Of a DNA stretch of 64,000 nt, positions 8,259 to 34,243 are shown in pieces. Below the pieces are notes generated by a model. The model searched no databases. It worked only from the letters and a program-made list of their open reading frames with translations, and was not told the DNA's origin. This DNA is from an uncultured Candidatus Saccharibacteria bacterium (GTDB lineage: Bacteria > Patescibacteriota > JAQUNI01): positions 124,265 through 188,264 of the forward strand of contig CAZKRD010000001.1 of NCBI GenBank assembly GCA_964555185.1, written 5' to 3'. The position numbers and the translations under genes are program-made. The stretch's first letter is position 1. Each line of letters begins with the position of its first letter.

Positions 8259-8806
8259 ATGCAAGGAAAGTTATGTCGTCGTCGTTCCATTAGATTGCCA
8301 GCATATAATTATTCTCAAGCCGGATATTATTTTGTGACGATTTGCACCCAGAATTTTTGGTGTTGTTTGGGAGAAGTTATTGCTGGGGAGATGAAACTAT
8401 CCGAAGCAGGGCATATGATTGATCAGAAATGGCAGGGATTAAAGAATAAATTTAAAAACATCAGGTTAGATCGATATCAGATTATGCCAAATCATTTCCA
8501 TGGGATTATTGTCATTACCCGTACAAAAATCGTCCCAGACTAGGTGATATTATTGGTGCATTTAAATCGATAACAACCTATAGATATATCCAAAATGTCA
8601 AAAGTAAAAACTGGCCTCGGTTTCACAAGCGTTTCTGGCAGCGCAACTATTACGAACACATCATCAAAACCGAAGAGTCCCTAAACCAATTCCGTGAATA
8701 TATTAAGAAGAACCCAGTACATTGGGAGAGTGACAGGAATAATCCTGATAATGTTAAGGTGAAATATTCCGCAAAAATTAAAACACAATGCGTAAAAATA
8801 AGTTAA
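8259..8806 (+). pseudogene. REP-associated tyrosine transposase (RAYT / IS200-IS605 TnpA family), frameshifted
   Basis: Part 1 (8259..8543): RRRSIRLPAYNYSQAGYYFVTICT...QIMPNHFHGIIVI (HxH motif). Part 2 is in another frame to 8806: RLGDIIGAFKSITTYRYIQ...RFWQRNYYEHIIKTEESL..YIKKNPVHWESD (catalytic Tyr region). The frames switch at the A5 run 8525-8529; six A's would restore one ORF of about 185 aa. Confidence 0.7.
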
Positions 8807-11800
8807 AAATATTTGCTCTGCTCGCTTTTATCCTGATCGGCGTGTTTTGGGGTGTGGGAAGGGTCGCGAAGGTTCAGGCGGAGAATCTGGTGGAGTGCAA
8901 ACGGAAAGCCTCTGTAGCAGCAACAGCATCATATTGGACAAAGGGTGATGTAAAGTGTGATTTAGATCAGAATCAGATTTGTGCCTACTATTCGGAATGG
9001 GGTAGCTTGGGATGGTATCCTAAAGAGATATGTAAAAAATTAGTTGAGGCCCGACATTGCTTAGGAGAAGACCCTGACTGTAATACAGATTTTGAAGGCG
9101 CTTTATTTGGAGGCGATGTAGAGAATGTTAAAATGAGAGAAGGGATTGAAACTGTGCCAGCTTATTATATGAGTGATAAGGATTATAAAATTGGCTGTCA
9201 GCAAGGGTTTTCGCCTGCTTCAACTGGCGATCATGAGAGGGCAATAGGTGTTGGTTTGGGGAGGAGGTCTGCTGAAATCTATCAATGCTTAGAGGAAACC
9301 GACCCCGGGGTTTATCAGGATGCTTGCGGCGATGGCAGAGGCGTACATAAAGAAGGGGATCAAATCATACCCACGGCTTGTGTAAGCTCTGATAAGCAAT
9401 GCGTGCCTCAGACCAAAGACGGACAATATGTATTCTTCGCGATTGCTAATAGAACGCTAACGCGCGAACAGGAATGGGTTGATGTTGGTAATCCATCGAG
9501 AGTCGTTATAAAACCAGGAAGCAAGGCTTATTGTTATGATACTTATCAAGAGATAGATTCTGCTAATTGTTATTTAGAAGCAGATAAAGACTTAATAGAT
9601 AAAGATTCTCCTGGCAGAAAGATTACCCCTAGCATAAACGCTGTTTATGGCGCAATAGTTGGTCAGAACGTTAAAGAATATTTTAGGCCGCATTATGAAT
9701 GTGAAGAAGGGGGCAGTGCATTTTGGCAGATATTCAACAGCACAATCGGCGTAGCATTGACCACGATTTTTGGCCTTATTGCCTCGGTTATTATTTTTAT
9801 TCTTGGCGCTGTGTTTTGGCTCGTTACCGCTTTTTTGGAATGGGTAATGGGGATTAGTAAGATAGAGGTAGGGATTATTGATATTGTTTGGGAGTTTTTG
9901 CGTGATTTTTCCAATATGTTCTTTATTATCATCCTGCTCTATATTGCTTTCTGTACGGTTTTGCGCATCCAGAGCCAGAATATTAAAAAAGCCCTGCCCT
10001 GGTTTATGTTTTCTGTCATCCTGATCAATTTTTCTCAAGTGATTTGTCAGATAGTGCTTGATTTTTCCCAGATTTTGATTGACGGCATTTATTACTTAAT
10101 GCCCGGGAACTGGTGGGGGCGGGTAAATTTTGTTTTGCATGCCGGGGGCATGGATGAATGGATGAATGTCAGGACTGTTTTTGGCAGTAGAAAGTTAAAT
10201 GATTTTGTCGGCGTAATCGGGGCGCAGGGTTTGAGTATTCTTTATATGGTGGCGTCCGTGATTGTTTTTGGCGCGACTGCTTTTCTTTTGGCAATCCGGA
10301 TTGTGGTTTTGTGGATTATGACCGCGATTTCGCCGCTTATTTATGTCGCGATGGCTGTTGGCAACAAGGGCATTGTCAAAAAGTACTGGATCAGTTTCTT
10401 GCGCACAGCCTTTTTCGCGCCAGTAATGATTTTTTGTATTGTCATCTCCATTGTTATTTTAAGCTATGATTTGGATGATTATTTAAAGTCAGAAGTGGGT
10501 ACAGTAGAACAGGTTTTAAGTGAAGAAGCAACTCAAGGAAATATTGTCACCGAAGCCGGCTCATTCCAGAATTTTATCCAACTGATTTTCGCCCTTGCTT
10601 TTATGTGTACTGGGCTTGTTGTCGCGCGCAAAGGCAGTGTGATCGGCGCTGACGGGGTAGTTAAAGGGGCGATGAAGCTTGGCAAGATGACTGCGCCCTG
10701 GATCACGGGTGTTAAACCGGCTGGCCATGGCGTGAAAGCGCTGGCTGGCTATGGCTGGCGTCAGGCCTTGAAGAGCCGGGCCGGGAAATATTTGAAGGTT
10801 GTCAGTCCCACGGTTTGGAAAAGAGCAACCAAGGCGCGCCGCGAGCGCGTGATGGAAGAAACTTTTGTCCCGCGCGCTGCCGAACTACAGCCAAGGCTCG
10901 CCGGCTGGCATGCTTTTTGGCACGGCGGCGGTCCTGCCTATGAGATGGAGAAGAAGAGAGCGGATAGTGCTAAAAGGAAATTAGCCAAAGATGAAGGCGA
11001 TAGGTTGACTCAGACTGATGAGCCATCAGAGTCTTTTATTGGCGTAATGAAAGTAGCCTTAGATCAAGCTAAGGAGCGGGGTGATCTTGGTTCGATTCGT
11101 GCGCTAACCCCTCTTGTTGAAGGAGCGCTCCGCACGGCGGGAATAGCGCGCGGCGACTGGAATGATGTCTTAAAGAGTAAATTTCTTAAAGAATCGGGAT
11201 ATGGCATTCAAAGAGCGACAACCGGCGCTGATGTTAGGATGTTTAAACAGCTTTTCGGCGATGACCCAGAGGCAATTCAAGTTTTAAACAGTTTGGCCGA
11301 GTCTTCCAAATCCAAATACACCCACCTTGCTTACGCTACCTATTTTGATGAAGAACAAGGCAAGCTGATCTATGGTATTGATAGAAAGGCGACAAGGTCG
11401 GAGATGAAAAGTGAGTTAGAAAAGTTAAATAAAAGAAGATTGAAAGCAGGCGAACAGGAGATGGAATTTGATGATTTCTATGAAGAGATTATTGAAAACT
11501 TAGGACAGGTTGACTCAACTGTTCGAGAAAATAAGCGGCTTCAGCAATTAGGTATGGCCGATGAGGTAGCCAATATAATCAAATTCTATAATAATGACCG
11601 CTCTAAAACAATTCTGGGTGAATTGGCGAAGAAAAGCCCTAAGGATAAATGGACAGTTAATCCAGGCGCGTTTGCCGCGGAAATCGGTGGGGGCTACACA
11701 GACCCTGAGACTGGTGAGTGGCATAAATATTATGGCGAGACAGCTTCAACAGAAGCCTATGTTGAAAGTGCAACCATGGCCGACGCAACAAGAATCGACA

Positions 11801-12159
11801 GCTGGGCTCCTCCGCGCATGCGCAAGGCCATTCTTGGTAATGAAAAAATGGTGAATAAAGTTCTTGAAGGGATAGAAACAAAGAGAAGAAAGGAGAAAAA
11901 AGATGAACTTGAGCAAGCAAAGGCTGTAGGTAACAGAGAAGAAGTAGAGAGAATTGAAAATTATATTACGGAACAAAGAGTAGTTTGGAACGCATTGTAT
12001 AGGAAGCTTAAGATAAAAGAGAAAACTGTTGTTGATGGAACCAAAAAGCAAACTGTTGTTGATGGAACCGAGGACGAGACAACAAGAACAGAGGAAGACG
12101 AAGCAGATGCTGCTGAAGATGCAGCTGCAGCTGCTGAAGAGGAAACAGAAGGAACTTAA
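8788..12159 (+). CDS. VirB6/TrbL-like polytopic membrane protein with Cys-rich N-terminal ectodomain and a ~400-aa C-terminal module (1123 aa)
   Basis: Signal/TM (IFALLAFILIGVFWGV), a Cys-rich region, then 6-8 predicted TM helices at aa 300-620 (IGVALTTIFGLIASVIIFILGAVFWLV..., ILYMVASVIVFGATAFLLAIRIVVLWIMTAISPLIYVAMAV...). It lies immediately upstream of the VirB3-like/VirB4 genes. The C-terminal part (nt ~10944..12156) is paralogous to 13434..14618. Confidence 0.5.
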   Translation: MRKNKLKIFALLAFILIGVFWGVGRVAKVQAENLVECKRKASVAATASYWTKGDVKCDLDQNQICAYYSEWGSLGWYPKEICKKLVEARHCLGEDPDCNTDFEGALFGGDVENVKMREGIETVPAYYMSDKDYKIGCQQGFSPASTGDHERAIGVGLGRRSAEIYQCLEETDPGVYQDACGDGRGVHKEGDQIIPTACVSSDKQCVPQTKDGQYVFFAIANRTLTREQEWVDVGNPSRVVIKPGSKAYCYDTYQEIDSANCYLEADKDLIDKDSPGRKITPSINAVYGAIVGQNVKEYFRPHYECEEGGSAFWQIFNSTIGVALTTIFGLIASVIIFILGAVFWLVTAFLEWVMGISKIEVGIIDIVWEFLRDFSNMFFIIILLYIAFCTVLRIQSQNIKKALPWFMFSVILINFSQVICQIVLDFSQILIDGIYYLMPGNWWGRVNFVLHAGGMDEWMNVRTVFGSRKLNDFVGVIGAQGLSILYMVASVIVFGATAFLLAIRIVVLWIMTAISPLIYVAMAVGNKGIVKKYWISFLRTAFFAPVMIFCIVISIVILSYDLDDYLKSEVGTVEQVLSEEATQGNIVTEAGSFQNFIQLIFALAFMCTGLVVARKGSVIGADGVVKGAMKLGKMTAPWITGVKPAGHGVKALAGYGWRQALKSRAGKYLKVVSPTVWKRATKARRERVMEETFVPRAAELQPRLAGWHAFWHGGGPAYEMEKKRADSAKRKLAKDEGDRLTQTDEPSESFIGVMKVALDQAKERGDLGSIRALTPLVEGALRTAGIARGDWNDVLKSKFLKESGYGIQRATTGADVRMFKQLFGDDPEAIQVLNSLAESSKSKYTHLAYATYFDEEQGKLIYGIDRKATRSEMKSELEKLNKRRLKAGEQEMEFDDFYEEIIENLGQVDSTVRENKRLQQLGMADEVANIIKFYNNDRSKTILGELAKKSPKDKWTVNPGAFAAEIGGGYTDPETGEWHKYYGETASTEAYVESATMADATRIDSWAPPRMRKAILGNEKMVNKVLEGIETKRRKEKKDELEQAKAVGNREEVERIENYITEQRVVWNALYRKLKIKEKTVVDGTKKQTVVDGTEDETTRTEEDEADAAEDAAAAAEEETEGT

Positions 12160-12186
12160 AAATTTAAGACAAATATAATTTGATCC

Positions 12187-13374
12187 ATGGATCAGGATTT
12201 AAATAATTTAAAAGTACAAGATTTAAGCCGGCAAGAGGTAGTGAACAAGATTCAAGCCAAGGTTAGTTTTATTATCCGCTTTGCTGACGATGATCAGGCT
12301 TGGCCTCTTTCTTTGGCTTTAAGGAGGATTCGCAAACAGAAGGATAAGGCCTTAACCCCCGAGCTTTTAGAGCGGCTAAAGCTGTGGTCAGTTTTAGTGG
12401 ATTATGTTTGTTTTCCGGCGCAAACCGAAGAGAGGACAATCGAAATCTTCCGAGATCATATGAAGGAAGTGTTGAGTTTGGAGCGGGACACGGTTATGGG
12501 CGGTTTGGAAAGCAAGCTGTGGGCTGATCCTGCCGGCCCTCGCGAGGAGCTGGGCGTCAAGCTGATTGGGGCTTTGAAGGCAAACAGGCAAAAGCTTGGA
12601 GATTTGACCTTGGGCGAATGGATTGCCACTTTTATCCATAGTTACCCCAATGTTCCTAATCTGGCTGATTTTGAAGAACGGAATTTTTTGAACAAAAACA
12701 AACAAGCGCGCGCTCTTGACCCCAAAGGCAGAGAGATTCTAGCTAAGCTTTTAAAGGTTTATGATCTCTTGCGTCCTTTAGAGGCGGGCAATTATTATTT
12801 CCAAGCGCTGGCGCAAGGCAAAGACTTGTTCGTCGAAGAAGAAAAGCAGGTAAGACTGGGTCGGGCCTTAGGCAGGACAGCGCGGCTCCAAGACGGTAGA
12901 GCTGGAGTGCGGAGTTTTCAGGATATTCGGACCCAGGGCAAGAGTCCGCGCGTTCCTCCCAGGGCGCCGCGGGGAGTGGGACAAGGAAGCAGGCCCGTTC
13001 CGCTCGGGCAAGGCCAAGGCCAAGTCTCCCCAAGGGCGGCGACTACCCAAGGGATTAATCCGCCGCCAAGGGTTCCAGTTTTGCCCCCTGATTTTAAGAT
13101 TAAGCCCCGGCTGGAAATCGAAAAACCAACCAAGCCTTCTTTTCAAAATCAAATATCTCCTAAATCCGAGCAGGTTCCGAGTCCTTCAAGCCAAGTTGAA
13201 CCAGAAACCCCTCGGGAAGCGGGCGCTTTGACTGTTGGCGAGCTGGAGAGAGCGGCCCAGAGAGGCGATCCGGTCGAAGAAGAGAGGCTGCGGAAAATGA
13301 TCCGTCAGGGTTTTAACAAGCTCTCGCCAGAAGCGCGCCAATATGTTAGCAACAGTCCCTTTTGGGCAGAGTAG
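12187..13374 (+). CDS. Hypothetical protein with Pro/Gly/Gln-rich low-complexity region
   Basis: 395-aa ORF, no recognisable motif. Contains PRVPPRAPRGVGQGSRPVPLGQGQGQVSPR. Confidence 0.55.
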   Translation: MDQDLNNLKVQDLSRQEVVNKIQAKVSFIIRFADDDQAWPLSLALRRIRKQKDKALTPELLERLKLWSVLVDYVCFPAQTEERTIEIFRDHMKEVLSLERDTVMGGLESKLWADPAGPREELGVKLIGALKANRQKLGDLTLGEWIATFIHSYPNVPNLADFEERNFLNKNKQARALDPKGREILAKLLKVYDLLRPLEAGNYYFQALAQGKDLFVEEEKQVRLGRALGRTARLQDGRAGVRSFQDIRTQGKSPRVPPRAPRGVGQGSRPVPLGQGQGQVSPRAATTQGINPPPRVPVLPPDFKIKPRLEIEKPTKPSFQNQISPKSEQVPSPSSQVEPETPREAGALTVGELERAAQRGDPVEEERLRKMIRQGFNKLSPEARQYVSNSPFWAE

Positions 13375-14621
13375 TATTTATTTTAAAATTTCAAATGAGA
13401 AGAGAAAATTCAGGAAAAAATTTTGCTTATGGAATGGAACGGAAAAGAGCAGATGTTTCTAAAAGGCAGTTAGCAAAAAATGAAGCCAAAACACTGCTAG
13501 AATCAGATGAACCAACCGAGTCTATTGTTTATATTTTAAAACAGGAATTAGAACGGCTTGAAAAGAAAGGGCTTCTTGGCACAGACCAAGCTTTAACCCC
13601 TTTAGCAGAGGGAGCAATGCGTGCAGCGGCTTCCCGCGGGGATTGGAATAATGTTTTGAGAAGCGATCTTCTAAAAAGATACGACTATGGTACTCAAAAG
13701 GCAAGTACGGGCGCTGATGTTAGGATGTTTAAGAAACTTTTTGGCGATAGTTCAGAAGCAATTCAGGTTTTAAACAGTTTAGCTGAATCCTCTAAAGCCG
13801 AGTACACCCATTTGGCTTATGCCACTTATTATGATGGAGAAGAGAGTAGGTTAAAATACAGCATAGATAGAAAAGAATACTTAGATTCAATGGAAGAGCA
13901 AAGGGTGAAAATGAATAAAAAGAGAAGAAAAGCTGGACAAGAGGAGATTTCAAGGGATGATTTTTATAATCTAGTTATTGATAATTTAGGAGAAGTGGAC
14001 GCGGAGATTAGACAGAAGAATGAGTTAAAGAAGGAAAATGTTGCTGAAGGAATAGCTGAAGTGATTAAGCTTTATAATAAAGATCGGGGTGATGCGATTA
14101 TGGCTGAATTGGCAAAAAAGGATCCTAAAGCTAAATGGAAGGTTAACCCGGGCGTATTTGCCGCGGAAATTGGCGGCGGTTATTGGGAGTTGAATCCCGA
14201 AACAGGCAAAGAGGAATATGTTGCTAAATACTATGGCGAAACAGCATCATCTCGGGCTTATATTGAGAGCGCGACCACGGCGGACGCGGAAAGAATAGAC
14301 AGTTGGGCTTCTCCGCGCATGCGCAGAGCTATTCTTGATAATAGGAAAATGGTGAATAACATCCTTGAAAGAATAGAAAACGAGAAAAGAGAGGAAGCTA
14401 AGAAAGCAAGGATTTCGGGAAATGCAGAAGAAGTAAGGAGACTTGAAGACTATGCTAACAAAAAGAGGGTAATTTGGAATCGTATATATGAAAAACTTGA
14501 GATATCACAAAGCAAGGACGGTAATGCTGGTACTGGTTTCATCGATAGAGAGGGAAAAGCTCAAGTTGTGGCTGAAGATGATGAGGCCGCAGTAGCCAAA
14601 GAAGAAACAGGGGGGACTTAA
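13362..14621 (+). CDS. Stand-alone paralog of the C-terminal module of the VirB6-like protein
   Basis: MERKRADVSKRQLAKNE...STGADVRMFKKLFGDSSEAIQVLNSLAESSKAEYTHLAYATYYD...KWKVNPGVFAAEIGGGY...DSWASPRMRRAIL...EETGGT versus MEKKRADSAKRKLAKDE...TGADVRMFKQLFGDDPEAIQVLNSLAESSKSKYTHLAYATYFD...DSWAPPRMRKAIL...EETEGT. Nucleotide identity is high in blocks. The true start may be ATG 13434. Confidence 0.7.
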   Translation: MGRVVFILKFQMRRENSGKNFAYGMERKRADVSKRQLAKNEAKTLLESDEPTESIVYILKQELERLEKKGLLGTDQALTPLAEGAMRAAASRGDWNNVLRSDLLKRYDYGTQKASTGADVRMFKKLFGDSSEAIQVLNSLAESSKAEYTHLAYATYYDGEESRLKYSIDRKEYLDSMEEQRVKMNKKRRKAGQEEISRDDFYNLVIDNLGEVDAEIRQKNELKKENVAEGIAEVIKLYNKDRGDAIMAELAKKDPKAKWKVNPGVFAAEIGGGYWELNPETGKEEYVAKYYGETASSRAYIESATTADAERIDSWASPRMRRAILDNRKMVNNILERIENEKREEAKKARISGNAEEVRRLEDYANKKRVIWNRIYEKLEISQSKDGNAGTGFIDREGKAQVVAEDDEAAVAKEETGGT

Positions 14622-14632
14622 AAAATAATGGT

Positions 14633-15772
14633 ATGACTAATTTTTCTAAGAAAATTCTTCCAATTGCCGCTTCTCAAGAAACAGCGTCAAAGTTAGCTCA
14701 GATTGCTGAACGTTTTTCATTATCCCGCGAACAGCGGAATCTTCAGGCGCGGATTTTGAGTAAGCTTTTGACCGCGGAAATCGGCCCGGAAGACTTGGCG
14801 CGCGTTTTAAGGATTAATCTTAATTTGAATGAGCAAAAAGCCAATACTCTTGCGCGCGCCATCCAGAAAGAGGTATTGGCGGGTTTAGATACCGGCGGCG
14901 GTTCTAAAAGGAGAAAGAAAATAAGAAAAAATAGGCAAAGACCGAAAAAGACAAGACCGGAGAAAAAGGGAAAATCAGAGCAGGCAAAGTTTAGCGCTCA
15001 AGAATTAAGAGCATGGTTTGATCGTCTTGTCAGGGATTTCAATTTGAATTTATCAGAGCTTCAGACCTCTCGTTTAGAGAGCGCGGCTTTGACCTATCTC
15101 AAAGATGTCCGTGATGAGATCGAAACCGAAAATGTTTTGTACCGCTCCCAGAACGAAGGAGGAGTTGGTTTGGCTGTTCCAGAGGCCGTAAAGATTACCC
15201 GCCGTCTAATAGAAGACTTCCCGGAAGAGGAGAAAAACGGGATCCGCAAGTCTTTCCATCCCAGAAGATCCGCAAGAGAAAGGGAAAAGCCGCCAGAGAA
15301 GCCCTTCCCGCCAGAAAGTCTCCGAGCAACTCAACCAATCGAGAGACCAAAAGCTATCGCGCCAGAGGGAGCCCGCCTAATCTCTGATGTGATTGGAGCG
15401 CCGCCTCGCCTTTCCCAGAGACCAAAACAGAAAAAGAGGGGCTTGTCTATTTCTGATTTAAGCCAGATTGCTCAACTAAAAGATTTGAGCATTGAGGCCT
15501 TTAAGAGAAAGCGGGCCGCGCAAGTCGTCAGCGAATTTCAGAATAAAATTAACGCCCTGGTGGGCAAAGATGAAGCGAAAAGAATGCAGAGCATTGAGGC
15601 TTGGCGCCAGTGCGAACCTTATCAGCTATACATTATGATCGGCGAAGAAAGCATTGGCCAGGGCAAGACCGTAGCCGAAGTAGCCCGCGAGAGAGCAAGA
15701 CAGAACAAGCCTTATTTAACCGAGGAGGAATTCAATGCGGTCGCGGATGTGAGCCGCGAGTTTCAATACTAA
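14633..15772 (+). CDS. Hypothetical soluble basic protein (379 aa)
   Basis: ORF tightly packed after 13362..14621 (11-bp gap). Lys/Arg-rich tract GGGSKRRKKIRKNRQRPKKTRPEKKGK. No TM. Confidence 0.55.
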   Translation: MTNFSKKILPIAASQETASKLAQIAERFSLSREQRNLQARILSKLLTAEIGPEDLARVLRINLNLNEQKANTLARAIQKEVLAGLDTGGGSKRRKKIRKNRQRPKKTRPEKKGKSEQAKFSAQELRAWFDRLVRDFNLNLSELQTSRLESAALTYLKDVRDEIETENVLYRSQNEGGVGLAVPEAVKITRRLIEDFPEEEKNGIRKSFHPRRSAREREKPPEKPFPPESLRATQPIERPKAIAPEGARLISDVIGAPPRLSQRPKQKKRGLSISDLSQIAQLKDLSIEAFKRKRAAQVVSEFQNKINALVGKDEAKRMQSIEAWRQCEPYQLYIMIGEESIGQGKTVAEVARERARQNKPYLTEEEFNAVADVSREFQY

Positions 15773-15788
15773 TTTTGATACTAAAATT

Positions 15789-16205
15789 ATGCAAGCAGTC
15801 GTACCCCAATTTATTGAAGTTGAAGACAGAATCATTGGCCCTTTAACCTTAAAACAGTTTCTTTATTTTTTAGCAGCCGGCGGCATAGAGCTTGTCTATT
15901 GGTTTTTCTTTGATTTTTCTTTATTTATTTTAATCAGTATTCCGACCGTAGCGATCGCCTTCGCCTTCGCCTTCTTTAAGATTAACGATCGGCCTTTTAT
16001 CTATTTTGTTTTAGCGGTCATTGGGTTTTATCTAAAACCAGTGGTCAGGGTTTGGCATCGCCGCGGCAGTAAATTAACGGCGCGGGATATTATTGCTGTT
16101 TCTTTCCTTGAAGAAACTGAAGGTGTGGGGCACAAGGATTTGCTTAAAGCGCATATGAAGCGGGGACGGCTAGCCCACATCGAGAAAGCGCTTGAAACAG
16201 CGTAG
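15789..16205 (+). CDS. Small two-TM membrane protein, VirB3/PrgI-like by position and topology
   Basis: 138 aa with a hydrophobic hairpin (FLYFLAAGGIELVYWFFF...ILISIPTVAIAFAFAFF...FVLAVIGFYL). It lies directly upstream of the VirB4 N-domain ORF, as virB3 does in T4SS loci. Confidence 0.4.
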   Translation: MQAVVPQFIEVEDRIIGPLTLKQFLYFLAAGGIELVYWFFFDFSLFILISIPTVAIAFAFAFFKINDRPFIYFVLAVIGFYLKPVVRVWHRRGSKLTARDIIAVSFLEETEGVGHKDLLKAHMKRGRLAHIEKALETA

Positions 16206-16395: not shown

Positions 16396-16402
16396 TATAC
16401 CT

Positions 16403-17155: not shown

Positions 17156-17176
17156 CCCTAAATCAGAAATAAATCA

Positions 17177-19117
17177 ATGCCTAATCCAAAAAACAACAAA
17201 GCCAAAAAAGAGTCAAGGGGTAAGCCCATTTTAGAAATTGTTGGTCCTGGCGCGTCCTCCAGGCTGGGTTTAACCCAAGAAGAGAAGGTAAGAGTTCTTG
17301 AGGCGCAGAAAGATTATTTAGAAGGCATCGCCACAATCAGAGACTTAATCGCGCCAGCGGCGATGAAGATTGACTCCCGTTATGTGCAGATTGGAGACTA
17401 TTTTGCGCGCACTCTTTTTATCTTCACTTATCCGCGTTATCTGCATACCGATTGGTTCTCGCCCGTGATTAATATGGACGCGGTTTTTGATGTAGCGATG
17501 TTTGTTTATCCTCAAAGTTCAGCTTCAGTTTTAAAGCGCCTGACTAAAAGCGCGGCCCAAATTTCTTCCTCTATTTCAATGGAGCGGGAAAAAGGCAAGG
17601 TCAGAAGCCCGATGCTTGAGACCGCGCATAGGGATGTTGAGTCATTACGAGATGCCTTGCAGCAGGGTACAGAGCGATTATTTAAATTCGCTCTCTATAT
17701 AACCATTTATGGGACTTCCTTAAAACATCTCGACAAAAATACAAAAAGGGTGGAAGTCTTGCTGGGCACTCGCTTGATCTATGCTAAGCATGCTATTTTC
17801 CAAAGCGAGCAGGGATTTAACTCTACTCTGCCGCTTGCCAATGACGAGCTTTTTATTGTTAACAATTTGAATACTTCGCCTTTGTCCACCAGCTTCCCTT
17901 TTGTTTCTTATGAGCTTTCTTCTAATGAAGGAATTCTTTACGGTGTTAATCGCCATAATAACAGCTTGATTCTTTTTGACCGTTTTTCTTTGGAAAATGC
18001 TAATAGCGTGGTTTTTGGCAAATCAGGCGCGGGTAAGAGCTATGCGATTAAGCTTGAAATTTTGCGGAGCTTAATGTTGGGAACCGATGTTTTGGTGATT
18101 GATCCGGAGAATGAGTATAAGCACCTGGCCAGCGCGGTAGGGGGGGCCTTTTTGCAGATTTCTCTGTCCTCACCCCATCGGATTAATCCTTTTGATTTGA
18201 CCTTGGTCTCGCGCGCATCCAAGCCCGAGGACATTTTAAGAGAGGCAGTGATAAGTCTAAAGGGGCTTTTGAGATTAATTTTAAGCGGAGTTAGTCCAGA
18301 GGAAGACGCACTTTTAGATGAAGCGGTGATGCAGACCTATGCTTCCAAAGGGATTACCCCTGAAACTTCCTGGGAGGGCCGGGCAATGCCCACGATGGAT
18401 GACTTTGAACGGATCCTGCAGAGTATGGAAGGGACCGACAGTATGGTCCAGATTTTAAGCAAGTTTACCAAAGGAACCTTTGCCGGCATCTTTAATCAGC
18501 CGACTAATCTTACTATGGATAGGCAGTTCGTGGTTTTCAGTATTCGTGATTTGGAGGATGAGCTCCGGCCGATCGGGATGTATGTGGTTTTAAATTACAT
18601 TTGGAATATCGTTCGCGCGGAATTAAAGAGAAGGGTTTTGGTGGTGGACGAGGCCTGGTGGATGATGGAGCACGAGGACTCGGCCCAGTTCCTGTTTTCA
18701 ATCGCGAAAAGGGCGCGCAAGTATTATTTAGGATTGACTACGATCAGCCAGGATGTTAATGACTTCTTGGCTTCTCGCCACGGCCAGGCGATCGTGACCA
18801 ACTCTTCAATTCAGCTCCTTCTGCGCCAGTCTCCGGCCTCGATTGATCTAGTCGCTTCCGTTTTTCACCTCACCCAGGAGGAAAAGTATCTGCTTTTGGC
18901 TTCGGACGTGGGAGAGGGAATTTTCTTCGCCGGCAATAAGCACGTGGCGATCAAGATTGTCGCTTCTTATTCTGAAGACCAGATCATTACCTCTGATCCC
19001 AAGCAGCTGATTGAGATCGCGAAAGCGAAAGAGGAGTTTGCGAGAGTGAACAATCAAGAAAACGAGGCAGCGGAAGAGAGAGACGATTCAGAGCAAGGGG
19101 CAAGTAACACTATTTGA
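17177..19117 (+). CDS. virB4: VirB4/TraC/CagE-family T4SS ATPase (646 aa)
   Basis: LIAPAAMKIDSRYVQIGDYFARTLFIFTYPRY... then YGVNRHNNSLILFDRFSLENANSVVFGKSGAGKSYAIK (Walker A), VLVIDPENEYKHLASAVGG, and VLVVDEAWWMM (Walker B, DEAW). Confidence 0.85.
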   Translation: MPNPKNNKAKKESRGKPILEIVGPGASSRLGLTQEEKVRVLEAQKDYLEGIATIRDLIAPAAMKIDSRYVQIGDYFARTLFIFTYPRYLHTDWFSPVINMDAVFDVAMFVYPQSSASVLKRLTKSAAQISSSISMEREKGKVRSPMLETAHRDVESLRDALQQGTERLFKFALYITIYGTSLKHLDKNTKRVEVLLGTRLIYAKHAIFQSEQGFNSTLPLANDELFIVNNLNTSPLSTSFPFVSYELSSNEGILYGVNRHNNSLILFDRFSLENANSVVFGKSGAGKSYAIKLEILRSLMLGTDVLVIDPENEYKHLASAVGGAFLQISLSSPHRINPFDLTLVSRASKPEDILREAVISLKGLLRLILSGVSPEEDALLDEAVMQTYASKGITPETSWEGRAMPTMDDFERILQSMEGTDSMVQILSKFTKGTFAGIFNQPTNLTMDRQFVVFSIRDLEDELRPIGMYVVLNYIWNIVRAELKRRVLVVDEAWWMMEHEDSAQFLFSIAKRARKYYLGLTTISQDVNDFLASRHGQAIVTNSSIQLLLRQSPASIDLVASVFHLTQEEKYLLLASDVGEGIFFAGNKHVAIKIVASYSEDQIITSDPKQLIEIAKAKEEFARVNNQENEAAEERDDSEQGASNTI

Positions 19118-19173
19118 TTAAAAGTAAAACCGTTGCCAAGGTAGGGTAGAAGTGGACTAATTCTACACTTACC

Positions 19174-19788
19174 TTGCCGGTGGTTAATAAAATTATGTTT
19201 TACAGCAATAAAAAAACAATCGTGATTTCCCTGATCCTTTGTTTGGGTCTAATCGTGATGACGGGCTTGGGCTGTAAGAGAAGCGGAGAAAAGGAAGATC
19301 TAGAGATCCTCGAACCTGAACTTGAAACTCCCTCTCTTGAAGCTCCGGTCCCGGGAACGCCTTCCCTGCCTACATCCGAGGTTCCAGGTTCAGAGAAAAC
19401 AAGCATCACCGAAAGAAAACTAAAGTCTTTGGCCGAGGATTTTGCCGCGGTTTGGGGCACTTATTCTTCGGAAAGCAATTGTCAGAATATTAGGGAGCTT
19501 CTGGATTATATGACCGCGGATTTTCGCGAGAATATGGAGGACTATCTTGAATATGAATGCACGGGAGAGATAGGAGGCGCTGACTTCACATGGGAGACAG
19601 AAGTTTTAGATAGTGTAATTTTAAATAACGACGTTACAGAGGCTGATATCCTGGTGGTGACCAGGCGCTGGAGAGATGGTGACTATGTGATAAGTTCTTA
19701 TTCTAATCTAATTCTGGATTTGAGAGTGGAAACAAACGCTCAAGGCGAGGATGAATGGAAGATTGATTATGCCTATTGGGCAGAGTGA
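19174..19788 (+). CDS. Hypothetical lipoprotein
   Basis: LILCLGLIVMTGLGCKRSGEKE (signal plus lipobox), followed by an acidic secreted domain. Confidence 0.55.
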   Translation: MPVVNKIMFYSNKKTIVISLILCLGLIVMTGLGCKRSGEKEDLEILEPELETPSLEAPVPGTPSLPTSEVPGSEKTSITERKLKSLAEDFAAVWGTYSSESNCQNIRELLDYMTADFRENMEDYLEYECTGEIGGADFTWETEVLDSVILNNDVTEADILVVTRRWRDGDYVISSYSNLILDLRVETNAQGEDEWKIDYAYWAE

Positions 19789-19794
19789 CTGATA

Positions 19795-19862
19795 ATTTAA
19801 AGTTCAAAGTTCAAAGTGACACTTCAAGTGTCATCCTGAAGGCGCTTTAGCGCCGAAGGATC
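19795..19862. terminator. Paired hairpins after the lipoprotein gene (family-B variant)
   Basis: 'aagttcaaagttcaaagtgacacttcaagtgtcat' + 'ggcgctttagcgcc'. Confidence 0.4.
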
Positions 19863-19910
19863 CCGTGAATATTCCTTGGGGCTCTTCATTATTCGTTTCA
19901 GGACAGAAGA

Positions 19911-20825
19911 TTGAATTTTGACTTTCGAAATATGGCCGCAAAACAAAGCAAAAAAGTAAAACCAGGAGATGAGGCTTCTTTCGATGTTAGACCTGGCCGT
20001 AAGAGTAAAAAGCCCGAGGAAGAGCTAGAGGCAATAGAGGGGGCGATAGAACTGACTCCATATGAAACCAAAACGGCAACTTTCAAGAAAGATAATATTA
20101 GAAGAAAAGGCAAAGCAAGACAGGAACAGGATTTTCAAGAACAATGGGAACAGCTGAAAGCGCAAAGGAGGATGATCCGGCCCCGAAGAACAGTCTCCAG
20201 AGGAGCAACAGAGTATGCTCGCCGTAAAAGAGAAAGAGAAGAAAGGACCAGGTTGAGAGAGAGAGGATACAAACCTTCTTTGGGACGGGAGATAGGGAAG
20301 GCGGGAGGAGAGAGACTTGGACAAACCGTTCCAGATGAAGAGGAAGAAAGGGAGGCGCCGCAAGAGCAAGAGGCGCAGAGAGAGCCGCAAAGAGAGGAAG
20401 AAAGGGAGACAAGAGAGGATCGTTTCCAAAAAGAGCTGCGTAAAAGAATGGGAGAGAGAGCAAAGGAGAAGGTCAAACAGAAGGTCAAACAGAAAGTGAA
20501 AGGACGGGCTAAACAGGAAGTAAAGAAAGTAGCGAAGAAAGCGGCCAAAGAAACAGCAAAGAAAGCAGCAAAAGCAGCAAGTAAGGCGCTTAAAAAGGCT
20601 GCCGCAGCAGCAATCAAAAAATTGGTTTCTCAAGTGATTGCTGGGATAGTTGCCCTTATTGGTGCGATCGGCTGGGTTGGCGTTCTCATTATTTTGGCTA
20701 TCTTAGTGATTATTATGGTTTTGGCCTATATCTATAGTTTTTGTAATGATAGCGCTCTAAATCATATTTTATGCAAGGTTTTGGGGTTTGGCGATGAACT
20801 CGATCAAATTATTCCCGCTAAATAA
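19911..20825 (+). CDS. Highly charged (K/E/R-rich) protein with C-terminal transmembrane anchor
   Basis: 304 aa. Repetitive charged region (KEKVKQKVKQKVKGRAKQEVKKVAKKAAKETAKKAAKAASKALKK), then IAGIVALIGAIGWVGVLIILAILVIIMVLAYIY. The overlapping minus-strand ORFs are low-complexity artefacts. Confidence 0.5.
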   Translation: MNFDFRNMAAKQSKKVKPGDEASFDVRPGRKSKKPEEELEAIEGAIELTPYETKTATFKKDNIRRKGKARQEQDFQEQWEQLKAQRRMIRPRRTVSRGATEYARRKREREERTRLRERGYKPSLGREIGKAGGERLGQTVPDEEEEREAPQEQEAQREPQREEERETREDRFQKELRKRMGERAKEKVKQKVKQKVKGRAKQEVKKVAKKAAKETAKKAAKAASKALKKAAAAAIKKLVSQVIAGIVALIGAIGWVGVLIILAILVIIMVLAYIYSFCNDSALNHILCKVLGFGDELDQIIPAK

Positions 20826-20837
20826 AGGAAGAGTATT

Positions 20838-22076
20838 ATGAAAAAAACTTTTTTTTTGATAGTTTGTTTAGCGCTTTTATTAGCCCCTGGAATTATTAGA
20901 GCAAGTGAGAATGATTGCCAGGGGACCTGGGTTAAGGTGCCAATCCCAATTGTTTTTGACCCAGAGATTAGAAGTCCAGGTGGTGGCGATGAAAAATTGA
21001 GCGTAATTACGCAAAATGGCCGCTGTATCCCCAACCCGGCGATTTTGATGTTTATGCTTTTTTACCTTGCTTTGGTTTTCATGGCTTTGGTCGCGATTTT
21101 TATGATCACGCTCGGCGGGTATAATTATCTTACTGCCTTTGGCAATGCCGAACGCGCCAAAGGGGGCAAGTCAATGATACTCGCCGCGATCGGCGGCTTG
21201 GTCGTAGGGCTTTTATCTTATGTGCTTTTGAATTTTATCAATCCGGATTTAACCAGTTTTGATTGGAGCACTAATAAGCTTAGTCAGGAAATAGGGAAAT
21301 CAATGGAAAAGATCGCGGAAGAAGAGAAGAAAGAGGAAAATTTATGCCCTAATAAAGCAGGGCCTTGTTATAAGAAGCCGATAGACGAAACTTGTGAAGT
21401 CAGTGGTGAAATTGGTTATTGTCGGATGAATGTTAATGTCAAAATGTGTACATGTGATGCTGATGAATGCGCTGATAACTGCGCTGGTGGTGATCTTAAG
21501 TGCGTAGGCAAGAAGTGTAAGGATGAGGATGAGGATGCTCAGATTTCTGATGGTCAGTGCCTGCTTAGTTCTGGATCTGCAATCTGCATGGACATTGAAG
21601 GTGCCTGTGGGAATGATTGCGGCGAAACCGGTAGCGCGTACTGGCAAGGTGATCTTAATTGTTGGGGAGGTTATGACTGCGATGTTGACGGGGTTTCCGG
21701 TCTTTGTTTAGGAGGCGATAGTTACAGCGGAGCAGGGAAGGAGTTATGTTTGTCTTGGGAAGATGTATGTGAGCAGGGTGAGTGTGGTGATAGTTATTCA
21801 GGCGAGACCGCCCAGAAAGTGGAAGATGAGTGTCATACGAATTATACATGTGATAATGAAAATGGAGCTTGTTTTAATGGCAGCTGTTGGCCGGGCTCTC
21901 CGTATGGGCTTGAGCCTTGCAGTAATGCTTGTGATGCTTGCCTCTATGACAGGGCAGGGAGTGGCCAGAAATTCGGGATATGTAAAGAGATTTATTCTGA
22001 TACCTTCCAATGCACATCTTACGAAGACGCTTTTCCATGTAGTGGTCTTCCTGATATTTCAGATCCAATAGATTAG
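20838..22076 (+). CDS. VirB2/TrbC-like double-TM N-terminal region fused to a ~240-aa domain with 37 cysteines
   Basis: Signal peptide (FFLIVCLALLLAPGIIRA). Two hydrophobic helices separated by a short polar loop (ILMFMLFYLALVFMALVAIFMITLGG-YNYLTAFGNAERAKGGKSM-ILAAIGGLVVGLLSYVLLNFINP), which is pilin-like topology. The C-terminal region has 37 Cys (CTCDADECADNCAGGDLKCVGKKCKDEDED...). Confidence 0.45.
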   Translation: MKKTFFLIVCLALLLAPGIIRASENDCQGTWVKVPIPIVFDPEIRSPGGGDEKLSVITQNGRCIPNPAILMFMLFYLALVFMALVAIFMITLGGYNYLTAFGNAERAKGGKSMILAAIGGLVVGLLSYVLLNFINPDLTSFDWSTNKLSQEIGKSMEKIAEEEKKEENLCPNKAGPCYKKPIDETCEVSGEIGYCRMNVNVKMCTCDADECADNCAGGDLKCVGKKCKDEDEDAQISDGQCLLSSGSAICMDIEGACGNDCGETGSAYWQGDLNCWGGYDCDVDGVSGLCLGGDSYSGAGKELCLSWEDVCEQGECGDSYSGETAQKVEDECHTNYTCDNENGACFNGSCWPGSPYGLEPCSNACDACLYDRAGSGQKFGICKEIYSDTFQCTSYEDAFPCSGLPDISDPID

Positions 22077-22084
22077 TTCTTATT

Positions 22085-22215
22085 TTGTACTTCAACTTTT
22101 AACTTGTATTTTTGCCTGCCCGCCGAAGCCTTGGCGTAGACGGGCCTGCCCACAACGCTTCACTTGCGAGGCGGGTGGGAGATTTAACTTTTAACTTTGC
22201 ACTTTTAACTTTTAA
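22085..22215. repeat. Family-B repeat (GC hairpin plus AACTTTTAACTTT periodic tract) between the Cys-rich pilin-like gene and the PD40 gene
   Basis: 'acttcaacttttaacttg...gcctgcccgccgaagccttggcgtagacgggcctgccc...gcgaggcgggtgggagatttaacttttaactttgcacttttaacttttaacttttc'. Confidence 0.7.
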
Positions 22216-22224
22216 CTTTTCTCC

Positions 22225-23349
22225 GTGTCCCGCAAAATTTTTTTTATCATTGTTATTATTTTGATTCTAATCATTGCAGGCGCTCTGCTCTATCTTTTTA
22301 TTTTCTCTGAAAAAACGCCAGAACCGCCCCCGAGCTCTCCTCCTTCCCTCCCTATTTCTGACACAACGCCCAGTACGACCAATGTGCCGGTTGCCGTGCC
22401 GGAGGTAGCAAAAGTTACGCAAGTGATTGAAAATCGGGTTTTAAGCTTTGCCTTAAAGGGTAATGAAATGATCTATTATGATCAGGATCTAGGCGCTTTT
22501 TTTAAGATGGGTCAAAGAGGATTAACCCCTGAAAGCTACAGCGCCTCTCGCTTTAGCAATGTAGAGGAAGTGATTTGGTCGCCGGATAAAAGCGAGGCGA
22601 TTATGGTTTTTACAGACGGTGATTATTATCATTTTGATATTGCATCCAATCAGTCAGAGAAGTTAATGCCGAATATTGATCAGCTTTCTTGGCTCCCTGA
22701 TGGAAAAAAGATTGTTTTCGAGTGGCGTGAGAGAGAGAATGAGCCGCGGTTGATTATTAGCGAACCCAACGGTGATGACTGGGAAAAGATTAAGGATTTG
22801 GGTTATGCCAAGATCCTTTTAACAGCCTCTCCAGAGTTTGGCGGCCCGGTTGTTTATCTGCAGAATTATTCTTACGGCGCGGGCCGCAATATCTATCCGG
22901 TTTATGAGGATGGTTCAGCCGGAGAGGTCAATCAGATTGAAGGTTACGGCGAGAAAGCAAAATGGAGTCGAGACGGCCGCCGGATTCTTTTTGAGGCTGT
23001 AGATTCAGAGGATTTTGAACAGTATCTCTGGGTGGTTGATGTTACGGGCACAAATCAGTATAATTTAGGGGTCAAGGGTTTTATTGAGAAATGCGTTTGG
23101 AATAAGACCAATAAGAAACTCTTCTGTGCCGTGCCTTCTGAAGCGTTAGAATTCGGGACTTTGGTTACGGATGAAAGCATTGATAATTTTTGGGAGATTA
23201 ATACCAAAACCGGAGAAAAGAGCAAGCTCTATGACGAATCAGAATCAGACACCAAATTTGACGCTGATAACCTTTGGCTCAATGGCAATGAAGACAGGCT
23301 CTATTTTACGGATGAGAATGGAGGGGTTTATGTATTAAGGTTAGATTGA
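22225..23349 (+). CDS. Membrane-anchored TolB-like (PD40) beta-propeller repeat protein
   Basis: GTG start. N-terminal TM (IFFIIVIILILIIAGALLYLFIF), a Pro-rich linker, then repeats WSPDKSEAIMVF / WLPDGKKIVFEW / WSRDGRRILFEA typical of PD40 blades. Confidence 0.6.
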   Translation: MSRKIFFIIVIILILIIAGALLYLFIFSEKTPEPPPSSPPSLPISDTTPSTTNVPVAVPEVAKVTQVIENRVLSFALKGNEMIYYDQDLGAFFKMGQRGLTPESYSASRFSNVEEVIWSPDKSEAIMVFTDGDYYHFDIASNQSEKLMPNIDQLSWLPDGKKIVFEWRERENEPRLIISEPNGDDWEKIKDLGYAKILLTASPEFGGPVVYLQNYSYGAGRNIYPVYEDGSAGEVNQIEGYGEKAKWSRDGRRILFEAVDSEDFEQYLWVVDVTGTNQYNLGVKGFIEKCVWNKTNKKLFCAVPSEALEFGTLVTDESIDNFWEINTKTGEKSKLYDESESDTKFDADNLWLNGNEDRLYFTDENGGVYVLRLD

Positions 23350-23429
23350 GAAATTGGGGGTAGATAATTTCCAATTTCCAATTATTTAGGTCGCGTTAAG
23401 AGGTCGAACAAGATTCATTTAATACAGCC

Positions 23430-24272
23430 ATGGAAAAACTCGGTCGTTTTGAAAAAATAATTATTCTAATCCTTATCCTGATCGCGATTTCAGGTGTTTT
23501 GATTTTTTTTCGGAAAACAAGAGATCGTGAGCTTGCTTTTTTGAAAATAGAGGCACAAAGCAAAGACGCTTCCTTTAGAGAAGAGAGTAATCCTGTTGGT
23601 GGTAATGTAGAAGAAGGAATCTTTGCTTATGACGAGATGGGGCTTAAGAGCCAATCAAGAGAAGGTGATTATCTTGCAAAGGAAAAGGACTCCTCTCTGG
23701 AAGAAGAGTTTGGAACAGAAAATCCACAATCAATGGTCGCGAGCACTCATTCCTTGAGTTTGGCAACAGAGGATGATCCTGCTTGGGGCCCGGAGAACGC
23801 CCAAGTCGTGATTGTCGAGTTTTCTGATTTTTTGTGTCCGTATTGCGCTGAATTTTCTTTAAAGATTTTGCCTCAAATAAGATCTCAATACGGCAGTAGA
23901 GTAAGATTTGTTTTTAAAGATTTGCCGGTTGAGTCCCTGCATCCTGGCTCGGGCAAGGTGCACGAAGCAGGGGAATGCGCGCATGAGCAGGGCCGCTTCT
24001 GGCAGATGCACGATTTGATTTTTGCTAATAATGCCGCTTTATCTGAAAGCAAACTCGCGGCTTTGGCCGAGGCGGCTGGCTTGGATACAGATGCCTTTAA
24101 TCTTTGTTTAGAAAGTGGTCAGAAGATGGTGGAAGTTGCAGGCGACCTAGAGAGCGGTTTCAGCGCGGGCATCCAAGTAACACCGACTTTGTTTATTAAT
24201 GACCGCAAAATTGAGGGAGCGGTTTCGTTTGTAGAGATCAGCAGAGTTATTGAGGAGGAATTGGCTTACTAG
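23430..24272 (+). CDS. dsbA: Thiol:disulfide oxidoreductase, DsbA family (membrane-anchored)
   Basis: N-terminal TM, then VIVEFSDFLCPYCAEF (CPYC active site) in a thioredoxin fold (...IQVTPTLFINDRKIEG). Confidence 0.8.
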   Translation: MEKLGRFEKIIILILILIAISGVLIFFRKTRDRELAFLKIEAQSKDASFREESNPVGGNVEEGIFAYDEMGLKSQSREGDYLAKEKDSSLEEEFGTENPQSMVASTHSLSLATEDDPAWGPENAQVVIVEFSDFLCPYCAEFSLKILPQIRSQYGSRVRFVFKDLPVESLHPGSGKVHEAGECAHEQGRFWQMHDLIFANNAALSESKLAALAEAAGLDTDAFNLCLESGQKMVEVAGDLESGFSAGIQVTPTLFINDRKIEGAVSFVEISRVIEEELAY

Positions 24273-24277
24273 TGTAA

Positions 24278-34177: not shown

Positions 34178-34243
34178 AAATTAATAATAACAAAAATAAT
34201 GAAATAAGAGTAGTCCCCTTAATTATTTGTCATTGTTGTATTT

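Follow-up and report, generated by a model that had tools for sequence, protein, structure and literature searches.

A chromosomal, relaxase-free type IV secretion locus of the Patescibacteria type with a candidate VirB8 subunit in an uncultured Candidatus Saccharibacteria bacterium

We analyzed a block of genes resembling a type IV secretion system (T4SS) in a 64,000-nucleotide stretch of DNA, hereafter the window, from an uncultured Candidatus Saccharibacteria bacterium (GenBank assembly GCA_964555185.1, contig CAZKRD010000001.1, positions 124,265 to 188,264 of the forward strand). The locus is a relaxase-free chromosomal T4SS of the type known from Patescibacteria, and not a new kind of machine. 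Its parts list, as predicted from sequence profiles and structural models, amounts to a full cytoplasmic-membrane translocon: VirB4, a separate TrsD, PrgI, an extended VirB6-like protein and a VirB8-like protein. On balance, we lean towards reading it as a chromosomally inherited Patescibacteria T4SS that derives from the MPF-FATA class of mating-pair formation (MPF) systems, has no DNA-processing functions and serves as a non-conjugative, host-contact conduit through which macromolecules are acquired.

Results

A co-directional T4SS gene block conserved among Patescibacteria

The block extends from 8788 to 25639 on the forward strand, with all genes in one direction and intergenic gaps of at most 197 bp. 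The initial annotation had described a syntenic run of T4SS-like open reading frames (ORFs) here, and every ORF that it named was found where it had been placed, on the forward strand. The genes assigned to the machine, together with one paralog, are as follows (aa, amino acids; CPR, candidate phyla radiation; TM, transmembrane):

8788–12159, forward strand: extended VirB6-like polytopic membrane protein, 1123 aa (assigned on remote evidence)
13395–14621, forward strand: stand-alone paralog of the cytoplasmic C-terminal domain of the VirB6-like protein
15789–16205, forward strand: PrgI/VirB3-like two-TM protein
16403–17155, forward strand: TrsD-like protein, a homolog of the VirB4 N-terminal domain encoded as a separate gene
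17177–19117, forward strand: VirB4 ATPase, 646 aa, short CPR form, CD1110/MPF-FATA type
19195–19788, forward strand: VirB8-like bitopic protein with a predicted NTF2-like domain
20838–22076, forward strand: VirB2-like T4SS_pilin-domain protein with a Cys-rich tail

Gene order was surveyed in 80 Patescibacteria genomes retrieved via VirB4 alignment, 44 of which had enough DNA upstream and 51 enough DNA downstream for neighbor counts, and two near relatives, L087 (the closest relative) and L088 (a Doudnabacteria relative), were compared with the window. Gene order is fully kept, from the VirB6-like gene through radA and recG, in relatives with 97% and 79% VirB4 identity, and the downstream order VirB4, VirB8-like protein, pilin, propeller, DsbA, RadA and RecG (the last on the opposite strand) recurs in other genomes. 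The survey agrees with published descriptions of the Patescibacteria T4SS. The best-named relatives of the window proteins belong to Candidatus Doudnabacteria and other Patescibacteria, and the GC content of the block (0.39–0.46) matches that of the window, with no compositional anomaly.

VirB4 is of the MPF-FATA type and is preceded by a separate TrsD-like gene

The 646-aa VirB4 scored 361 bits (cut-off 325) against the NCBIfam model NF045971, a CD1110-family VirB4-like conjugal transfer ATPase, over model positions 185–734 of 752, and also matched the Pfam families P-loop_TraG (2.9e-26) and CagE_TrbE_VirB (1e-5). The Walker motifs reported in the initial annotation are in place, with GKSGAGKS at residue 281, VLVIDPENEY at residue 305 and DEAW at residue 491. 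More than 8000 homologs were found at E<1e-10; the 120 listed among them were 59–97% identical and about 590–700 aa in size, and those with a name came almost all from Patescibacteria/CPR lineages, whereas the best plasmid match, from Bacillota, reached 37% identity. These sequence comparisons place VirB4 in the MPF-FATA/CD1110 type with patescibacterial nearest relatives. Identities of 59–97% against at most 37% for plasmids, the conserved gene order and the unremarkable GC content together indicate that the locus is patescibacterial and vertically inherited.

The TrsD-like ORF matched NCBIfam TrsD (3.5e-7), positions 88–235 of the mycoplasma model VirB4_plasma (E 1.5e-11) and, in precomputed annotation, Pfam PF26593 (TraC-like), and the 646-aa VirB4 covers positions 292–893 of the same mycoplasma model. 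The two ORFs are thus colinear on a full-length VirB4 model and together equal one long VirB4. A TrsD-like gene was present upstream of virB4 in 80 of 80 loci and adjacent to it in almost all; in L088, a 70-aa gene of the 23S_rRNA_IVP family (9736–9948) sits between the two. The locus had been described as having a split VirB4: a separate N-domain ORF does exist, but nothing is broken, and the two-gene arrangement is ancestral, the CPR norm and no lesion. The TrsD-like gene and virB4 share a frame, with two in-frame stops (TAG..TAA) between them; a single-mutation split or stop-codon readthrough was rejected in view of these two stops, the universality of the arrangement and the gene inserted in L088.

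The two-TM protein encoded at 15789–16205, initially read as VirB3-like, indeed matched Pfam PrgI (E 3.7e-8; 34.2 bits against a gathering score of 27), with TM helices at 45–63 and 70–88, and PrgI was found in 76 of 80 loci. The spacer between prgI and the TrsD-like gene (16206–16402, 197 bp) is the longest gap within the block. A sigma-70-like match lies at 16192–16220, in a region where promoter-like matches occur at chance frequency. Scans for promoters (27 matches, 27.1 expected) and terminators (23 matches, 21.3 expected) were at chance level, so operon boundaries are not callable.

A predicted VirB8-fold protein follows VirB4

The product of 19195–19788, which had been called a lipoprotein, is instead predicted to have a VirB8 fold. 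Its N-terminal TM helix (residues 7–22), which comes with a possible TGLGC lipobox, is joined by a Pro/Glu-rich linker to a domain of 130 residues. A word-indexed homolog search with this protein gave three proteins, and the AlphaFold2 model was built on a three-sequence alignment; in it, the domain (residues 70–197) comprises three helices and a four-stranded sheet at a predicted local distance difference test score (pLDDT) of about 80–90. The best Foldseek match in the PDB was the IcmL-like protein lpg0120 (5cnl; E 1.4e-5, template modeling (TM) score 0.70), and other top matches were CagV, VirB8 of Rickettsia and Agrobacterium, DotI, TrwG of R388 and TraE of pKM101, all with a probability of 1.00. 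VirB8-family matches spanned E-values from 1.4e-5 to 7e-3 and TM scores of 0.55–0.71 and made up the majority of the top 50, among which were also PARC6 and a few other NTF2-like proteins. At the sequence level there was no Pfam match, and a profile search of the globular domain against PDB sequences returned PrgL as the sole T4SS protein among its matches, at a non-significant E of 2.6.

In 58 of 80 loci, a member of the family is encoded by the gene right after virB4, and 20 of the 80 showed the order VirB4, VirB8-like protein, ComF. VirB8 homologs were found only rarely in a 2025 survey, which suspected extreme divergence (PMC12102498). Judged by the structural model, the ‘missing’ VirB8 subunit of the Patescibacteria T4SS has a good candidate in this family.

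An extended VirB6-like protein with a stand-alone paralog

The 1123-aa membrane protein has a signal peptide, an extracellular domain of about 300 aa with 14 Cys, at least six TM helices (327–613) and a hydrophilic tail of about 500 aa, which includes a helical cytoplasmic domain of about 410 aa. It gave no direct Pfam or NCBIfam match itself; Pfam TrbL was matched by 4 of 43 of its homologs. The homolog P0036 scored 27.3 bits against TrbL (gathering score 25.9) over residues that align to 403–605 of the query, and it matched the window protein at E 2e-20 in BLASTP. AlphaFold2 modeled the TM bundle with pLDDT 80–93. A Foldseek search of the model against the PDB gave nothing significant, the matches of highest probability being TrwI/VirB6 chains of the R388 machine; the family profile retrieved only coiled-coil and low-complexity noise from PDB sequences, and a tblastn search of the TM region against 72,556 plasmids gave zero matches at E<=1. 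Of the 44 loci with enough upstream DNA, 38 have a homolog ahead of virB4 in the same orientation. The proposed TrbL/VirB6 identity is therefore upheld by homologs and topology, though not by a match of the protein itself, and it is on such remote evidence that we accept the protein as a putative ‘extended VirB6’.

Residues 713–1123 of this protein align with residues 18–419 of the product of 13395–14621 at 54% identity (BLASTP E 8e-142), and the corresponding DNA (10924–12159) is 66% identical to that gene. The stand-alone paralog is also encoded in L087 (408 aa) and was absent from the 80 distant loci.

The pilin-domain protein carries a Cys-rich tail

The VirB2-like protein has a signal peptide, a two-TM hairpin (about 69–133) and a C-terminal part of about 270 aa that contains 30 Cys (11%, compared to 0.6% in the cytoplasmic proteins of the window) and that topology predicts to be extracellular. 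Its own match to PF18895 (T4SS_pilin; E 0.0015, 19 bits) lies below the gathering score of 26.6, but 55 of 58 sampled homologs match this family (best 1.2e-21) and 5 match TrbC/VirB2; an exhaustive search gave 4722 representatives, conserved over residues ~70–145. The VirB2-like identity suggested initially is thus borne out by homologs and topology and not by the protein’s own score, and by sequence family a VirB2-like pilin domain is encoded near virB4.

No other pilin-domain ORF is present in the window. Elsewhere, pilin-domain proteins adjoining virB4 measure 130–555 aa and have up to 27 Cys, and long Cys-rich ones are common, so the window’s protein is typical rather than unique. Many of the pilin-domain representatives P0169–P0222 hold 3–8 tandem pilin-hairpin stretches (8 in the 820-aa P0179); in them, the pilin gene arrays known from published work are fused into one polypeptide. 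Peptidoglycan-hydrolase domains occur on some homologs (SLT in 4, VanY in 3 and Peptidase_M15 in 3), which suggests that the hairpin can serve to anchor or deliver extracellular enzymes, VirB1-like ones among them.

The locus lies among housekeeping genes and lacks conjugation functions

Absences were assessed with Pfam, by scanning almost every window ORF of 100 aa or more and from precomputed annotation of about 8–10 kb on each side, about 82 kb in all. No relaxase and no type IV coupling protein (T4CP) of the VirD4/TcpA kind was found within these ~82 kb, and no VirB9/10 or VirB11 family match in the window or its flanks; no VirB1-like hydrolase was detected by Pfam among the window ORFs. 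The absence of relaxase, VirD4-type ATPase, VirB11 and VirB9/B10 that had been noted for the window was thereby confirmed and found to extend to the DNA immediately outside it. Two T2SSE-family ATPases sit within a PilM-PilB-PilT-PilC-pilin-PilD-PilO operon 17 kb away, which identifies them as type IV pilus motors and not as VirB11.

The module stands in a chromosomal setting and, as described initially, beside DsbA, RadA, RecG, ComF and the type IV pilus operon. The left flank beyond the window encodes a radical SAM enzyme, a methyltransferase, HhH-GPD, Ham1, PMT and FGE-sulfatase proteins, and the right flank LigA (which spans the window end), GatC, GatA and RmuC. Within the window, the gene for LigA, a NAD-dependent DNA ligase, starts at ~62158 and runs off the right end, preceded by a GIY-YIG nuclease gene (61640–62026). 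Over the ~82 kb, virB4 thus has a chromosomal housekeeping context with no relaxase near it, and none of the attributes of a conjugative MPF-FATA T4SS – relaxase, T4CP, location in a mobile element – was found. The absence of relaxase and T4CP from window and flanks, likewise reported in about 2400 genomes (PMC12102498), argues that the machine is non-conjugative.

Accessory genes, neighbors and insertions

The remaining genes of the block, and the pseudogene that precedes it, are:

8259–8761, forward strand: frameshifted IS200-like Y1 transposase pseudogene, similar to REP-associated tyrosine transposases (RAYT-like), not part of the machine
12187–13374, forward strand: 395-aa cytoplasmic protein with a Pro-rich region, lineage-specific
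14633–15772, forward strand: conserved cytoplasmic family, 379 aa, immediately preceding prgI in numerous T4SS loci of Patescibacteria
19911–20825, forward strand: 304-aa protein with a Lys/Glu/Arg-rich, highly charged N-terminal part and a C-terminal two-TM hairpin
22225–23349, forward strand: membrane-anchored beta-propeller-like (PD40/TolB-like) protein, conserved accessory gene
23430–24272, forward strand: membrane-anchored DsbA-like thiol-disulfide oxidoreductase with a CPYC motif
24299–25639, forward strand: RadA/Sms recombination helicase, starting less than 30 bp after the dsbA stop

The locus had been called minimal, a description that does not fit, since it also encodes the VirB8-like protein and no fewer than three other accessory families that are conserved. 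The 379-aa family was found by iterated hidden Markov model (HMM) search in 57 of 80 loci (32 of the 44 with enough upstream DNA), on the same strand at a median of -2.6 kb; Pfam was blank for the window protein and three homologs, as were PDB sequences, and there is no TM helix. The beta-propeller-like protein has an N-terminal TM helix and weak PD40 and DPPIV_N matches, its homolog in L088 gave a faint Tricorn_2nd match, and the gene occurs in 32 of 80 loci (27 of the 51 with enough downstream DNA). The DsbA-like protein matches Thioredoxin_4 (4.4e-29) and DSBA (2.5e-15), with CPYC at residue 136 and an N-terminal TM helix; dsbA keeps its position in L087 and L088 and lies within 10 kb downstream of virB4 in 15 of 80 loci. 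RadA (Zn ribbon, AAA_25 and ChlI/Lon_C in Pfam) is a conserved neighbor and no T4SS component. Within 10 kb of virB4, the 80 loci had radA in 23 (counted downstream), recG in 23 and comF in 25.

The other two proteins are more restricted. The 395-aa protein, with zero Pfam or NCBIfam matches and zero TM helices, has a counterpart in L087 (399 aa) and was matched in 1 of 80 distant loci. The 304-aa protein, with TM helices at 235–253 and 256–274 and only weak, sub-threshold Pfam matches, has same-position counterparts in L087 (293 aa) and L088 (508 aa) and homologs in 0 of 80. A search for paralogy among the 395-, 379- and 304-aa proteins found none.

Read across a -1 frameshift at ~8529, the RAYT-like gene matches Pfam Y1_Tnp with 33.5 bits (gathering score 23), and the frameshifted transposase noted initially is thus real. 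In L087, the 500 bp from 8263 to 8762 are replaced by 119 bp between flanks that are 83–93% identical, and no second copy is present in the window or related loci. The gene is a strain-specific local insertion into the promoter-proximal spacer, and its interpretation as a sign of past mobility of the block was rejected in view of the 500-bp size of the insertion, its absence from L087, the conserved flanks and gene order and the normal GC content.

Just upstream of the block, 2094–8024 encodes a secreted or anchored giant protein of 1976 aa with a weak PKD match, Pro/Thr-rich linkers and 28 Cys. L087 has it (1895 aa), it is absent at this place in the Doudnabacteria relative, and none of 80 other loci encodes a homolog. 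The protein is probably an adhesin specific to this lineage. Further downstream, 32000–38950 has a GC content of 29–36%, compared to about 43% elsewhere in the window, and carries serS, a radical-SAM enzyme, an archaeal-type AdoMet synthetase (PF01941) and a PHP-domain protein, ending with a large serine recombinase (37385–38650) followed by tRNA-Ser(tga) (38849–38939); a tRNA-Ser(gct) lies at 30658–30751. This low-GC block may be an integrated island, separate from the T4SS block. Rfam matches in the window were three tRNAs and nothing else.

Discussion

Much of what we describe has precedent. Quinonero-Coronel et al. (2025) described the Patescibacteria T4SS as a derivative of monoderm (MPF-FATA) conjugation systems, with VirB4 present in 2,417 of 3,035 genomes, monophyletic within MPF-FATA and with 99% intraclass nearest neighbors, with TrsD, PrgI, VirB6 and VirB2-like pilins near virB4, and with relaxases in only 103 genomes (PMC12102498). 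TrsD is its most abundant component and is a separate protein also in the staphylococcal pGO1 subclass, and loci of class ABY1 commonly include comF, recG and radA (PMC12102498). The composition, the missing relaxase and the comF/recG/radA neighborhood are thus already in print and bring no new principle, for a system that is essential in the one species tested and is carried by about 80% of the genomes of a very large radiation. What we add is a predicted VirB8-fold subunit encoded immediately behind virB4 in most of the 80 genomes sampled, though VirB8 is reported to be rare; a cytoplasmic and a beta-propeller accessory family, both conserved; a VirB6-like C-terminal domain with a stand-alone paralog; and a co-located DsbA, which fits disulfide-rich surface domains.

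A non-conjugative role, which the initial annotation had proposed, is the most reasonable reading and matches published conclusions (PMC12102498; PMC10633639; PMC11665869). Reviews describe the function of the system as completely unknown and speculate on effector delivery or uptake, with ComB as a precedent (PMC11665869; PMC12857230). A role in host interaction is indicated by Ca. Southlakia epibionticum ML1, whose epibiotic growth requires the T4SS and its pilins, with coupling protein and relaxase lacking (PMC10633639), while in Southlakia comEC is needed for competence and dispensable for viability (PMC12857230). We propose that VirB4, TrsD and PrgI would energize assembly of a VirB6/VirB8 membrane channel, and that VirB4, with TrsD and PrgI, may dislocate the pilin-domain protein from the membrane into a surface or pilus-like structure whose Cys-rich ectodomains would be oxidized by DsbA. 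This structure could then contact the bacterial host cell on which the ultrasmall organism depends, and the contact-dependent conduit may acquire host macromolecules, nucleic acids above all.

We favor import over effector export for three reasons: no coupling protein was found nearby, such loci are repeatedly linked at operon level to comF, radA and recG, and published evidence indicates that Patescibacteria must obtain nucleotides from their hosts. This leaning also draws on a 2026 preprint that reports host-RNA uptake and tubular structures, maybe T4SS pili, in a cultivated patescibacterium.

Several points weigh against an acquiring conduit built from these parts. T4SSs usually export. The VirB6 assignment rests on remote evidence (no significant Foldseek match, no Pfam match of its own), and the VirB8 model stems from an alignment of three sequences only. 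The tail of ~270 aa on the sole pilin-domain protein might not fit into a canonical VirB2 pilus. The link between DsbA and the Cys-rich components is presumed, the association of a DsbA neighbor with such components being statistically weak in the case of pilins (p=0.06), with none seen for VirB6-like proteins. The linkage to comF, radA and recG could be plain gene-order conservation, and in our locus recG and comF run in the opposite direction. Most Patescibacteria genomes carry a T4CP homolog far from virB4 (PMC12102498), and our scan covered about 82 kb of a 706,972-bp metagenomic scaffold (ENA ERZ23486238, BAEC19-1 scaffold_1). Finally, Wang et al. (2023) favor protein export or ‘an alternative capacity’ (PMC10633639).

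Export is a serious rival to import. It would mean that delivered proteins enter the host or attach to it so as to manipulate it or make it permeable, and that nutrients arrive by other routes, which we consider unlikely here but well within reach. Besides the usual direction of T4SSs and the suggestion of Wang et al. (PMC10633639), effector delivery is among the speculations noted in a PNAS perspective (PMC11665869), exporters without a T4CP exist in Ptl and Brucella VirB (PMC12102498), and the SLT, VanY and M15 domains on some relatives of the pilin family suggest outward-acting cargo. However, neither a coupling protein nor a recognizable effector gene was found in 82 kb, the locus has no VirB1-like hydrolase, and the conserved neighbors are DNA-processing genes and not toxin/immunity pairs.

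A more specific form of import is rather doubtful: an importer in the manner of Ced or ComB, in which a VirB4/TrsD-powered VirB6/VirB8 channel and a disulfide-rich pilin-domain fiber would tap the host cell, draw in its nucleic acid and pass this on to ComF, RadA and RecG, whose genes lie within or next to the operon. If true, it would be a T4SS working in reverse in a monoderm bacterium, serving nutrition and recombination.

It is improbable that nothing is translocated at all and that VirB4, TrsD and PrgI do no more than pull the Cys-rich pilin-domain protein out of the membrane for an adhesive fiber or coat that attaches the cell to its host. VirB4 is the pilin dislocase of canonical systems, the sole pilin-domain protein has a large disulfide-rich ectodomain, genes for DsbA and a beta-propeller surface protein are co-located and the 1976-aa giant surface protein is encoded just upstream; yet the VirB6-like and VirB8-like channel components are conserved alongside, and type IV pili already serve these bacteria for adhesion and motility. 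An ordinary or decaying integrative and conjugative element (ICE), with relaxase and coupling protein elsewhere or recently lost, is scarcely credible and already largely refuted: the VirB4, PrgI and TrsD families do stem from monoderm conjugative plasmids and ICEs, and the window does hold a transposase pseudogene and, 13 kb away, a serine recombinase, but relaxase and T4CP are missing from window and flanks, housekeeping genes lie on both sides, gene order is kept across relatives and 80 genomes at normal GC, the transposase is a 500-bp local insertion, the recombinase belongs to the separate low-GC block beside tRNA-Ser, and VirB4 is monophyletic in the phylum with 99% intraclass nearest neighbors (PMC12102498).

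Comparison with known systems

The closest counterpart is the Patescibacteria T4SS (PMC12102498, PMC10633639), with which the locus shares a short VirB4 of MPF-FATA type, an adjacent TrsD, PrgI/VirB3, VirB6-like and VirB2-like (PF18895) proteins, a chromosomal location with no relaxase or T4CP nearby, and a comF/recG/radA neighborhood matching class ABY1. It differs in its pilins, with one pilin-domain gene whose product has a Cys-rich tail of ~270 aa where the known system has short pilins in an array; in an unusually Cys-rich ectodomain of the VirB6-like protein, whose C-terminal domain is duplicated as a separate gene; in the lack of an adjacent VirB1-like hydrolase; and in a predicted VirB8-fold gene, VirB8 being rare in the 2025 survey.

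With monoderm MPF-FATA systems (Trs of pGO1/pSK41, Prg of pCF10, CD1110 of C. difficile CTn2), the locus has in common the VirB4 family, PrgI, a separate TrsD (as in pGO1), a VirB6-like polytopic protein, a predicted VirB8-fold protein (as in PrgL/TraM) and the lack of an outer-membrane core. In contrast to them, it is without relaxase, VirD4/TcpA, VirB1-like hydrolase and PrgB-type adhesin, and it has a VirB2-like pilin-domain protein, a housekeeping chromosomal site and a VirB4 at most 37% identical to plasmid homologs.

The initial label ‘ComB-like’ did not stand. ComB of Helicobacter pylori resembles the locus in its T4SS origin, in having no relaxase or coupling protein and in its B2-, B3-, B4-, B6- and B8-like parts, and DNA import would be a shared role, speculatively. 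However, ComB is a diderm, MPF-T-type system in which ComB7/9/10 span the outer membrane and which feeds ComEC, whereas the present locus is monoderm MPF-FATA in type (CD1110 VirB4, PrgI, TrsD) and has no VirB7/9/10. In the sole patescibacterium studied genetically, moreover, cells can do without ComEC but not without the T4SS (PMC12857230, PMC10633639). Its VirB4 scored 135 bits against VirB4_CagE (TIGR00929; cut-off 643) and 22.7 against PRK13898 (cut-off 1050). With neither a ComB7/9/10 core nor an MPF-T VirB4 recognizable by sequence, the analogy to ComB is functional only.

The crenarchaeal Ced system (CedA/A1/A2/CedB, with Ups type IV pili) offers another parallel, with a VirB4/HerA-like ATPase, polytopic and small membrane proteins, a single-membrane cell and no relaxase. 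Import by Ced has been proven and involves cooperation with type IV pili; our locus, too, has a type IV pilus operon, at a distance of 17 kb. It differs in that no CedA homologs are present in our locus, whose PrgI, TrsD, VirB8-like protein and pilin domain are bacterial MPF-FATA types; VirB4 scored 37 bits against CedB (NF041017; cut-off 700) and 21.7 against CedD (cut-off 600), far below either threshold. As an analog, Ced may be considered at least as apt as ComB.

Outside the CPR, the best VirB4 match (37%) was on a megaplasmid of Pontibacillus sp. ALD_SL1 (NZ_CP062975, 351–361 kb; L089), typed as non-mobilizable. It shares a gene order in which two pilin-like genes and a gene for a large membrane protein are followed by PrgI-like, TrsD-like and VirB4 genes, and its pilin-like genes matched the CPR pilin HMM at E ~1e-17. 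It differs in being a Bacillota megaplasmid on which an M23 peptidase follows VirB4 and a 780-aa protein at the VirB6 position is not detectably similar; VirB8-like, beta-propeller and DsbA genes were not detected there. The arrangement of pilin, PrgI, TrsD and VirB4 is thus not exclusive to Patescibacteria, and the Pontibacillus locus bears on whether the ancestral monoderm system had a pilin.

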